Counted from the first letter of the stretch, positions 34,512-37,367 are shown. The stretch is 64,000 nucleotides of DNA from Escherichia coli (GCF_013122565.1 NZ_CP053258.1); one strand, 5' to 3'. Numbers and translations are program-made. The notes: a model not told the origin generated them from the sequence alone.

Positions 34512-34877
<366 letters not shown>

Positions 34878-34894
34878 TTCTTGCGAGTTTCAGA

Positions 34895-34921
34895 AAAGGG
34901 GGCCTGAGTGGCCCCTTTTTT
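34895..34921. terminator. rpsO terminator, palindromic with U-runs on both strands
   Basis: AAAAGGGGGCCTGAGTGGCCCCTTTTTT. Confidence 0.8.
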
Positions 34922-35068
34922 CAAGCTGACGGCAGCAATTAACTGGAAACTAATGTATTGTTGCTATGAATGATCTTCCGTTGCAGAGGTTCGCGCGGCT
35001 AATGAGAGGCTTTACCCACATAGAGCTGGGTTAGGGTTGTCATTAGTCGCGAGGATGCGCAGAAGATC
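34895..35068 (-). ncRNA. sraG: SraG-type small RNA antisense to the pnp leader (bounds approximate, by position)
   Basis: Known position of SraG in the rpsO-pnp intergenic region on the opposite strand; the palindromic rpsO terminator supplies a minus-strand 3' end; no independent sequence proof of 5' end. Confidence 0.3.
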
Positions 35069-35123
35069 GGGTATTAACACCAGTGCCGTAAGGTACTGTC
35101 TAAGAAAGAGAAAGGATATTACA

Positions 35124-37259
35124 TTGCTTAATCCGATCGTTCGTAAATTCCAGTACGGCCAACACACCGTGACTCTGGAAACCGGCATGATGGCTCGTCA
35201 GGCTACTGCCGCTGTTATGGTTAGCATGGATGACACCGCGGTATTTGTTACCGTTGTTGGCCAGAAAAAAGCCAAACCAGGTCAGGACTTCTTCCCACTG
35301 ACCGTTAACTATCAGGAGCGTACCTACGCTGCTGGTCGTATCCCGGGTAGCTTCTTCCGTCGTGAAGGCCGCCCAAGCGAAGGCGAAACCCTGATCGCGC
35401 GTCTGATTGACCGCCCGATTCGCCCGCTGTTCCCGGAAGGCTTCGTCAACGAAGTTCAGGTTATCGCCACCGTGGTTTCTGTTAACCCGCAAGTTAACCC
35501 GGATATCGTCGCGATGATTGGTGCTTCCGCAGCACTGTCTCTGTCTGGTATTCCGTTCAATGGTCCGATTGGTGCTGCCCGCGTAGGTTACATCAATGAC
35601 CAGTACGTACTGAACCCGACTCAGGACGAGCTGAAAGAGAGCAAACTGGATCTGGTTGTTGCCGGTACTGAAGCCGCTGTACTGATGGTTGAATCTGAAG
35701 CTGAACTGCTGAGCGAAGACCAGATGCTGGGCGCAGTAGTGTTCGGTCATGAACAACAGCAGGTTGTTATTCAGAACATCAATGAACTGGTGAAAGAAGC
35801 CGGTAAACCGCGTTGGGACTGGCAGCCGGAGCCGGTAAACGAAGCGCTGAACGCGCGCGTTGCTGCACTGGCTGAAGCTCGTCTGAGCGATGCTTACCGC
35901 ATCACCGACAAACAAGAGCGTTATGCGCAGGTTGATGTCATCAAATCTGAAACCATCGCGACGCTGCTTGCTGAAGACGAAACCCTGGACGAAAACGAAC
36001 TGGGTGAAATTCTGCACGCTATCGAGAAAAACGTTGTTCGTAGCCGCGTACTGGCAGGCGAACCGCGTATCGACGGTCGTGAAAAAGATATGATCCGTGG
36101 TCTGGATGTGCGTACTGGTGTGCTGCCGCGTACTCACGGTTCTGCGCTGTTCACCCGTGGTGAAACGCAGGCGCTGGTTACCGCAACGCTGGGTACTGCT
36201 CGTGACGCGCAGGTTCTTGATGAACTGATGGGCGAACGTACCGATACCTTCCTGTTCCACTACAACTTCCCTCCGTACTCCGTAGGCGAAACCGGCATGG
36301 TCGGTTCTCCGAAGCGTCGTGAAATTGGTCACGGTCGTCTGGCGAAGCGCGGCGTGCTGGCAGTCATGCCGGATATGGACAAATTCCCGTACACCGTACG
36401 TGTTGTGTCTGAAATCACTGAATCCAACGGTTCCTCTTCTATGGCTTCCGTGTGCGGTGCGTCTCTGGCGCTGATGGACGCAGGTGTGCCAATCAAAGCT
36501 GCCGTTGCGGGTATCGCAATGGGTCTGGTGAAAGAAGGCGACAACTACGTTGTACTGTCTGACATTTTGGGCGACGAAGATCACCTGGGCGATATGGACT
36601 TCAAAGTTGCAGGTTCCCGCGACGGTATCTCTGCACTGCAGATGGATATCAAAATTGAAGGTATCACCAAAGAGATCATGCAGGTTGCACTGAACCAGGC
36701 TAAAGGTGCGCGTCTGCACATCCTGGGTGTAATGGAACAGGCGATCAACGCGCCGCGTGGCGATATCTCTGAGTTCGCACCGCGTATCCATACCATCAAG
36801 ATCAACCCGGACAAGATCAAAGATGTTATCGGTAAAGGCGGCTCTGTTATCCGTGCCCTGACCGAAGAAACCGGCACCACCATCGAAATCGAAGATGACG
36901 GTACTGTGAAGATCGCAGCGACCGACGGCGAGAAGGCGAAAAACGCTATTCGTCGTATCGAAGAGATCACTGCAGAAATTGAAGTGGGCCGCGTCTACAC
37001 TGGTAAAGTGACCCGTATCGTTGACTTTGGCGCATTTGTTGCCATCGGCGGCGGTAAAGAAGGTCTGGTACACATCTCTCAAATCGCTGACAAACGCGTT
37101 GAGAAAGTGACCGATTACCTGCAGATGGGTCAGGAAGTACCGGTGAAAGTTCTGGAAGTTGATCGCCAGGGCCGTATCCGTCTGAGCATTAAAGAAGCGA
37201 CTGAGCAGTCTCAACCTGCTGCAGCACCGGAAGCTCCGGCTGCTGAACAGGGCGAGTAA
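35124..37259 (+). CDS. pnp: Polynucleotide phosphorylase
   Basis: ORF 35037..37259 trimmed to TTG 35124 ((M)[20 protein letters not shown]), 711 aa; two RNase PH domains, KH and S1. Confidence 0.95.
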
Positions 37260-37367
37260 GGTTGCCATTTGCCCTCCGCTACGGCGGGGGGCTTTTAACC
37301 GGGCAGGACGCCTTGTTAGCAACCGGGAACAGGACGTTCATTCAACCGTGGTCTTCGGGAGTGGGAA

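Follow-up and report, generated by a model that had tools for sequence, protein, structure and literature searches.

Does the short stretch between rpsO and pnp in this Escherichia coli sequence carry the control elements described for K-12, and on which of the two opposing transcripts that cover it has the RNA structure been selected? The window, i.e. the whole stretch of 64,000 nucleotides from E. coli (NZ_CP053258.1) that was analysed, shows between 34400 and 35400 the end of truB followed by rpsO and the start of pnp. Based on the ORF list and the RefSeq annotation of near-identical E. coli records, rpsO (plus strand, 34608..34877) encodes ribosomal protein S15 of 89 aa and ends with a TAA stop at 34875-34877, while pnp, encoding PNPase of 711 aa, occupies 35124..37259 on the same strand and starts with TTG at 35124-35126. 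The spacer from stop to start comprises 34878-35123, which are the 246 bp given in an earlier note on this DNA and borne out here by the stop and start positions, the ORF list and the concurring RefSeq gene starts.

This kilobase is present in 5425 of 5426 complete E. coli genomes, with at least 99% identity in 5395 of them. Compared to K-12 MG1655, 245 of the 246 spacer bases are identical and A34941 (C in MG1655) is the sole difference; the alignment of 34860-35140 likewise shows this single mismatch, and 35110-35138 is identical. The MG1655 annotation puts pnp, sraG and rpsO exactly where they were mapped in the window, and all elements named in the earlier note are present, at most one base from where it had placed them. 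We consider it nearly certain that 34878-35123 is the E. coli rpsO-pnp intergenic control region and works as described for K-12, and none of our results contradicts this identification. The location of the spacer elements, their identity to K-12, their folds, their conservation and their covariation are established here. Cleavage, autoregulation and the transcription and effect of SraG rest on the literature, which is based on K-12; since the window equals K-12 but for one base in the interval, these findings transfer directly. The K-12 region with T1, P2 and the RNase III hairpin was reportedly worked out by Portier, Regnier, Hajnsdorf and co-workers. The window shares with it the locus, the gene order and every mapped element in place, and differs in A34941 for C and in the PNPase residues Q194E and H607N.

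The single substituted base, which is nucleotide 169 of SraG, falls in the part of the spacer that separates the terminator from the P2 -10 region and that differs freely from genus to genus; the distance to the inferred P2 start downstream is about 28 nt. The exact 61-nt stretch 34911-34971 was found in none of the 5425 complete E. coli genomes, all of which match it at 98.4% with one mismatch. A34941 thus appears to be private to this sequence and is probably neutral. The two PNPase substitutions relative to K-12 are accompanied by 23 nucleotide differences in the pnp gene. Upstream of and overlapping the rpsO start, the S15 leader (Rfam RF00114) matches 34550-34664 on the plus strand with 117.6 bits, and it was matched in 20/20 related loci scanned; we take it to be the known element of S15 translational autoregulation. 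On the minus strand, an open frame of 740 aa (35100-37322) lies antisense to all of pnp and is codon-aligned with it. As the 711 pnp codons include no TTA, CTA or TCA, which are the complements of stop codons, this frame is explained by pnp codon usage and was rejected as a gene in favour of a shadow ORF.

Close behind rpsO lies the intrinsic terminator T1 (34894..34921), which is assigned to rpsO on the plus strand and to SraG on the minus strand based on its sequence, folds, conservation, the end of K-12 sraG and the literature. It is laid out as AAAA (34894-97), G34898, GGGGCC (34899-904), a TGAGT loop, GGCCCC (34910-15) and TTTTTT (34916-21). The GC-rich stem-loop with its GGGGCC/GGCCCC core can form in both transcripts with a z-score of about -3 on each strand: the plus-strand fold reaches -19.9 kcal/mol (z -3.2; 1/200 shuffles as good) and the minus-strand fold -15.7 kcal/mol (z -3.1; 0/200 shuffles as good). 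Because both folds beat the shuffles, T1 can act in both directions, as had been claimed. This is in line with Fontaine et al. 2016 (PMC5029454), who name the rpsO terminator T1 and the sraG terminator one bidirectional terminator and report that T1 ends the monocistronic rpsO mRNA.

The two sides of T1 are unequal. A U-run follows the stem directly on both strands, as UUUUUU on the plus and CUUUUCU on the minus strand, where the tail CUUUUCUG holds a shorter and interrupted run (CTTTTCT, 4 U). In the rpsO RNA, the A-tract pairs with the U-tract via one G·U, formed by G34898 opposite T34916, which gives a 12-pair stem; in SraG the same position is a C·A mismatch that stops the A/U stem extension and thereby accounts for the weaker minus-strand fold. 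The description of T1 as a perfectly palindromic terminator with U-runs on both strands therefore holds for the U-runs, of unequal length (6 versus 4), and fails for the symmetry, which is broken by G34898/T34916 and by the loop TGAGT, which is not self-complementary. Perfect symmetry is not required of bidirectional intrinsic terminators. Like those found between convergent units, T1 serves two units, here rpsO and sraG, with a palindromic, GC-rich stem between an A-tract and a T-tract; it differs from them in its asymmetry, the SraG side having a 6-pair core plus the mismatch. A scan for terminator-like structures returned five sites versus 1.4 expected and lists T1 only in its minus-strand version, the plus-strand version probably being unlisted because the stem extension uses up the T-run.

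The conservation of the spacer was followed across 80 Enterobacterales loci, which were fetched through S15. The GGGGCC..GGCCCC core is kept in 79/80 of them, and the outer stem shows compensatory changes (AGAAAG..CTTTCT, TAAAG..CTTTA, GAAAG..CTTTC). Within the 9 nt past the core, every locus has 6-7 T on the plus strand and 3-6 (mean 4.5) on the minus strand, and the A-tract upstream of the core is partly conserved across the order. Several side observations concern the surroundings of the terminator. A GTTTCAG motif just upstream of T1 (34884-34893) is common to many of these loci, as judged without a formal count, and coincides with the place upstream of T1 where RNase E is reported to cut rpsO mRNA (PMC5029454). 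In Erwinia, Pantoea and Tatumella loci (L024, L030, L043, L047, L054, L062-L064, L068-L071, L074, L078, L079 and L082), the terminator lies 80-87 nt past the rpsO stop versus about 20 nt, and thus an extra segment of about 60 nt precedes it. On one scaffold of Affinibrenneria salicis (NZ_VYKJ01000001.1), two rpsO-pnp copies (L021 and L022, at 394 kb and 678 kb) have spacers of equal length and identical sequence where compared; either a large stretch was duplicated there or the assembly is at fault.

Downstream of T1, the pnp promoter P2 was placed at 34950..34969 (plus strand), with a -10 box TATTGT at 34956-34961 and a start near A34969; both positions are approximate and derive from a published RNA length and a conserved block. 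The pnp RNA used in vitro is 234 nt long, its first base being the P2 start and its last one ORF nucleotide 79 (PMC5029454), which puts the start near 34969. If a 2-nt stagger is allowed for, the RNase III sites reported at 39 and 77 nt from the P2 start (PMC5029454) would instead put it at about 34965-34966. As the two published numberings differ by 3-4 nt, the P2 start and the RNase III cuts are approximate. The block AAACTnATGTATTGTTGC, just upstream of the P2 start, is conserved in Enterobacteriaceae and Erwiniaceae. A sigma-70 promoter scan flagged the rpsO promoter only and neither P2 nor the sraG promoter; both of these are weak matches to the consensus. A further block, GGCAGCAAT (34931-34939), lies between the terminator and the P2 -10 box and is likewise conserved in Enterobacteriaceae and Erwiniaceae. 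It bears no likeness to a sigma-70 -35 box; a role as promoter element, as RNase E site or as part of SraG is conceivable.

Based on the literature and on MG1655 coordinate mapping, the pnp 5' leader from P2 comprises about 155 nt (34969..35123, plus strand), and it is also carried by read-through transcripts from the rpsO promoter (PMC5029454). Near its end, the leader carries the Shine-Dalgarno sequence AAGGA (35112..35116, plus strand), which precedes the start codon by 7 nt. In 80/80 Enterobacterales loci, the codon that aligns with the first residue of PNPase is TTG, with AAGGA-like motifs (AAGGA/AGGA) 7-8 nt upstream. Together with the RefSeq starts and a published 30S toe-print 15 nt from the UUG (PMC5029454), these data corroborate the UUG start that had been proposed for pnp. 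Two GGA motifs occur in the leader, one within the Shine-Dalgarno sequence and one at 35053-35055. The introduction of PMC5029454, citing Park 2015, mentions CsrA binding to two sites in the 5'UTR, one of them overlapping the Shine-Dalgarno sequence, and GGA 35053-35055 may represent the second.

The most prominent element of the leader is a long imperfect hairpin of 97 nt (34972..35068, plus strand), whose 3' end lies 55 nt before the pnp TTG and which is assigned as the RNase III processing site based on its fold, a covariance model, covariation and the literature. The enclosing 121 nt (34955-35075) fold with -48.4 kcal/mol (z -4.65; 0/200 shuffles as good). Four close relatives served to build a covariance model of the hairpin (R1), which scores 107.8 bits at this site and has one match per strand in the whole 64-kb window. 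It matches 73/76 related loci on the sense strand in a search at E <= 1e-6 in which the sense matches were kept; a looser search mixed in mirror matches from the minus strand. Among 72 distinct sequences, 96.6% of cells are paired in an alignment fitted to the R1 model, which favours the structure. Compensatory double changes occur at 20/37 hairpin pairs (199 cells), none of 500 shuffles reaches any of five covariation measures, and sliding the partner by 1-3 columns lowers the pairing to 39-47%. Plain MAFFT alignments were discarded for this purpose in favour of the covariance-model alignment, since they misaligned the lower 3' arm and the loop and RNAalifold recovered only 17 pairs from them.

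The covariation is not spread evenly over the hairpin: the lower and apical stems covary freely, and the central helices (34990-35005 / 35040-35055) are nearly invariant across the order. This near-invariance points to sequence-specific constraints beyond pairing, which may comprise recognition by RNase III, the action of PNPase on the duplex after cleavage, and GGA 35053-35055 as a CsrA site. The claim that the pnp leader is the autoregulatory target of RNase III is supported by the fold and its covariation, by the stem-loop being described as the RNase III entry point for PNPase autoregulation (PMC5029454), and by an RNA-seq study that places an RNase III site at MG1655 3311286, corresponding to 35006 in the window, inside the upper stem. 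As in the rnc leader and other 5' UTRs cleaved by RNase III, a cut in a long hairpin destabilises the downstream message (PMC5371410). In contrast to rnc, the feedback on pnp is closed by PNPase rather than RNase III, and PNPase must degrade the small duplex strand left by cleavage (PMC5029454). Some relatives carry longer spacers, of 301-366 bp in five loci (L009, L013, L053, L055 and L032), and in several species insertions of 50-120 nt lie in or beside the hairpin while the invariant core is retained. An insertion element has been reported in the rpsO-pnp spacer of Yersinia pestis (PMC5029454).

On the strand opposite rpsO and pnp, the antisense sRNA gene sraG (34894..35109, minus strand, 216 nt) lies wholly inside the spacer and antisense to the pnp leader. 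Rfam model RF00082 matches from 35065 to 34894 over its full length (model 1-177 of 177) with 159.6 bits against a gathering score of 50. The annotated MG1655 gene (b4449, 3311183..3311398) maps to 35109 to 34894 with 215/216 identical bases, so that the comparison with the K-12 coordinates, suggested earlier as a check, bears the locus out. The earlier note had placed SraG on the opposite strand at a single position in the spacer; the strand and the locus stand, and the extent has to be revised, as sraG spans 216 of the 246 spacer bp, with its 5' end 2 nt short of the Shine-Dalgarno AAGGA. With SraG/PsrO (RF00082; b4449) the window shares the full-length model match, the 215 bases, the antisense position and the terminator. 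The model covers just the older 174-177-nt form, and the first 42 nt of SraG (35109-35068), which are needed for pnp repression, lie outside it (PMC5029454).

SraG has 216 nt rather than the older 174 nt, its mapped start preceding the old 5' end by 42 nt; Northern blots and cRT-PCR showed the transcript in the K-12 strains N3433 and MG1655 (PMC5029454). Its likely -10 box, TAATAT (35116..35121, minus strand), was placed by position, ending 6 nt before the annotated 5' end at 35109, and sits between the pnp Shine-Dalgarno sequence and the TTG. A -10 mutation near, and not overlapping, the Shine-Dalgarno sequence abolishes the 216-nt SraG, and both the lowering of pnp mRNA and the block of the 30S toe-print in vitro were seen with the full-length form only (PMC5029454). 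In vivo, the sraG promoter mutation raises pnp mRNA and PNPase 1.3-fold (PMC5029454). SraG binds Hfq with a sub-nanomolar Kd; trans targets were not found in E. coli, and one was reported in Yersinia (PMC5029454). SraG is also listed among the ProQ-associated antisense RNAs.

The spacer could be read differently at two places. T1 might work one way, for rpsO only, with the SraG ends at 34894 arising by 3' exonuclease trimming back to a stable GC hairpin. The minus-strand tail with just 4 U in a row, the C·A mismatch and the difference between -15.7 and -19.9 kcal/mol speak for this, as do those SraG clones whose 3' ends lie beyond the terminator and the non-templated A tails found in 24/76 clones (PMC5029454). 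However, the terminator is where most of the cRT-PCR clones end, and it is called bidirectional by the authors themselves (PMC5029454), a stem of 6 bp, all of them GC, with 4-5 U among the next 8 nt fits the usual intrinsic-terminator pattern, the scan flags precisely the minus-strand version, and the upstream A-tract is partly conserved, so that we regard trimming as improbable and retain a terminator that acts in both directions. PNPase, in turn, might start at the in-frame TTG at 35037, which would make it 740 aa long and the leader partly coding; a mechanical ORF list does extend the pnp frame to this codon, as no stop intervenes. RefSeq and K-12, on the other hand, begin pnp at 35124, and it is this codon that is preceded by AAGGA at 7 nt and lies 15 nt from the 30S toe-print (PMC5029454). 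The TTG and the codons following it are conserved in 80/80 loci, while the stretch upstream varies in length and sequence and lies inside the covarying RNA hairpin. A start at 35037 is therefore not plausible, its chance being practically nil, and it was rejected in favour of UUG 35124.

The remaining alternative concerns SraG itself: the minus-strand RNA may be real and its structure an unselected by-product, with a regulatory role that is marginal or confined to some lineages. As each G·U pair on one strand turns into C·A on the other, wobble pairs reveal on which transcript the fold is under selection. In 77/77 distinct sequences, the sense hairpin exceeds its mirror in stability, with means of -48.3 versus -31.6 kcal/mol, and in the window the SraG mirror hairpin is about 13 kcal/mol weaker. 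The z-scores are -6.0 for the sense and -3.8 for the mirror hairpin, the sense being better in 70/77. On average, a hairpin holds 5.7 G·U pairs in the sense and 0.7 in the mirror orientation, and the sense folds contain 437 G·U pairs versus 19 places where a single A·C or C·A mismatch would read as G·U in SraG; as related sequences are not independent, these wobble figures are counts rather than probabilities. The wobble points the same way throughout, and at several positions G·U alternates with A-U or G-C. Given these sense-favouring pairs, it seems that selection has acted on the pnp leader and that the fold of SraG itself came about as a by-product. The same alternative draws on the T content of the 9 nt past the terminator core, 6-7 on the plus strand in every locus versus 3-6 on the minus strand, on the TAATAT -10 box, kept in only about 26/80 loci, and on the 1.3-fold effect and the lack of E. 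coli trans targets in the published work (PMC5029454). Against it stand the promoter mutation that removes SraG and raises PNPase, the block of the pnp toe-print by the full-length form, the sub-nanomolar affinity for Hfq and the Yersinia trans target (all PMC5029454), as well as the ProQ association. Moreover, the wobble bias identifies the selected fold and does not make the antisense RNA useless; as antisense pairing with the leader needs no fold of its own, the by-product fold is no argument against SraG acting in E. coli. We consider this alternative as a whole, with its marginal or lineage-confined role, rather unlikely and keep SraG as an antisense RNA acting on pnp in E. coli.

A related question is what the family model itself detects. 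RF00082 matches 19/20 diverse loci at 77-177 bits because the model mirrors conserved sense elements; taken together with the -10 box in only about 26/80 loci, a high SraG score is no evidence of an antisense RNA at a given locus. It is conceivable, at somewhat less than even odds in our judgement, that the structure of the SraG family as a whole mirrors the pnp hairpin and the rpsO terminator and that antisense control of pnp is lineage-restricted rather than the work of a conserved sRNA.

For E. coli, these elements can be combined into a working scheme along the lines described for K-12. Transcripts from the rpsO promoter would either stop at T1 (34894-34921) or read through into pnp, which would also be fed by the second promoter, P2, with its start near 34969. 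Both kinds of pnp transcript would carry the 97-nt hairpin (34972-35068), in which RNase III would cut both arms, and PNPase would then remove the small 5' fragment still paired to the message. This removal would leave the mRNA open to decay by RNase E and, at the ribosome binding site, to repression by CsrA, by which PNPase would limit its own synthesis; translation of pnp would begin at UUG 35124. SraG would be made from the opposite strand, by a promoter that overlaps the region where pnp translation starts, and would run from 35109 to 34894 and end at T1 read backwards. Its pairing with the pnp leader would be perfect and would stop 2 nt before the Shine-Dalgarno sequence; SraG is expected to block 30S binding and create extra RNase III sites, as in vitro, and to lower PNPase modestly in vivo. 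The points that weigh against this picture are the small SraG effect (1.3-fold, PMC5029454), the weaker mirror hairpin and the short minus-strand U-run.

The region is already known in detail and represents textbook biology rather than a discovery, and the sense-strand wobble bias is the sole small addition made here. In general, the locus is a classic model of an RNA-degrading enzyme controlling its own level, with RNase III, PNPase, RNase E, CsrA, S1 and an antisense RNA as the players in rpsO-pnp control. For RNA-family databases, matches of this kind do not show that an antisense RNA is made or used, since an antisense-RNA model can score highly across a whole order by mirroring conserved structures of the sense strand.
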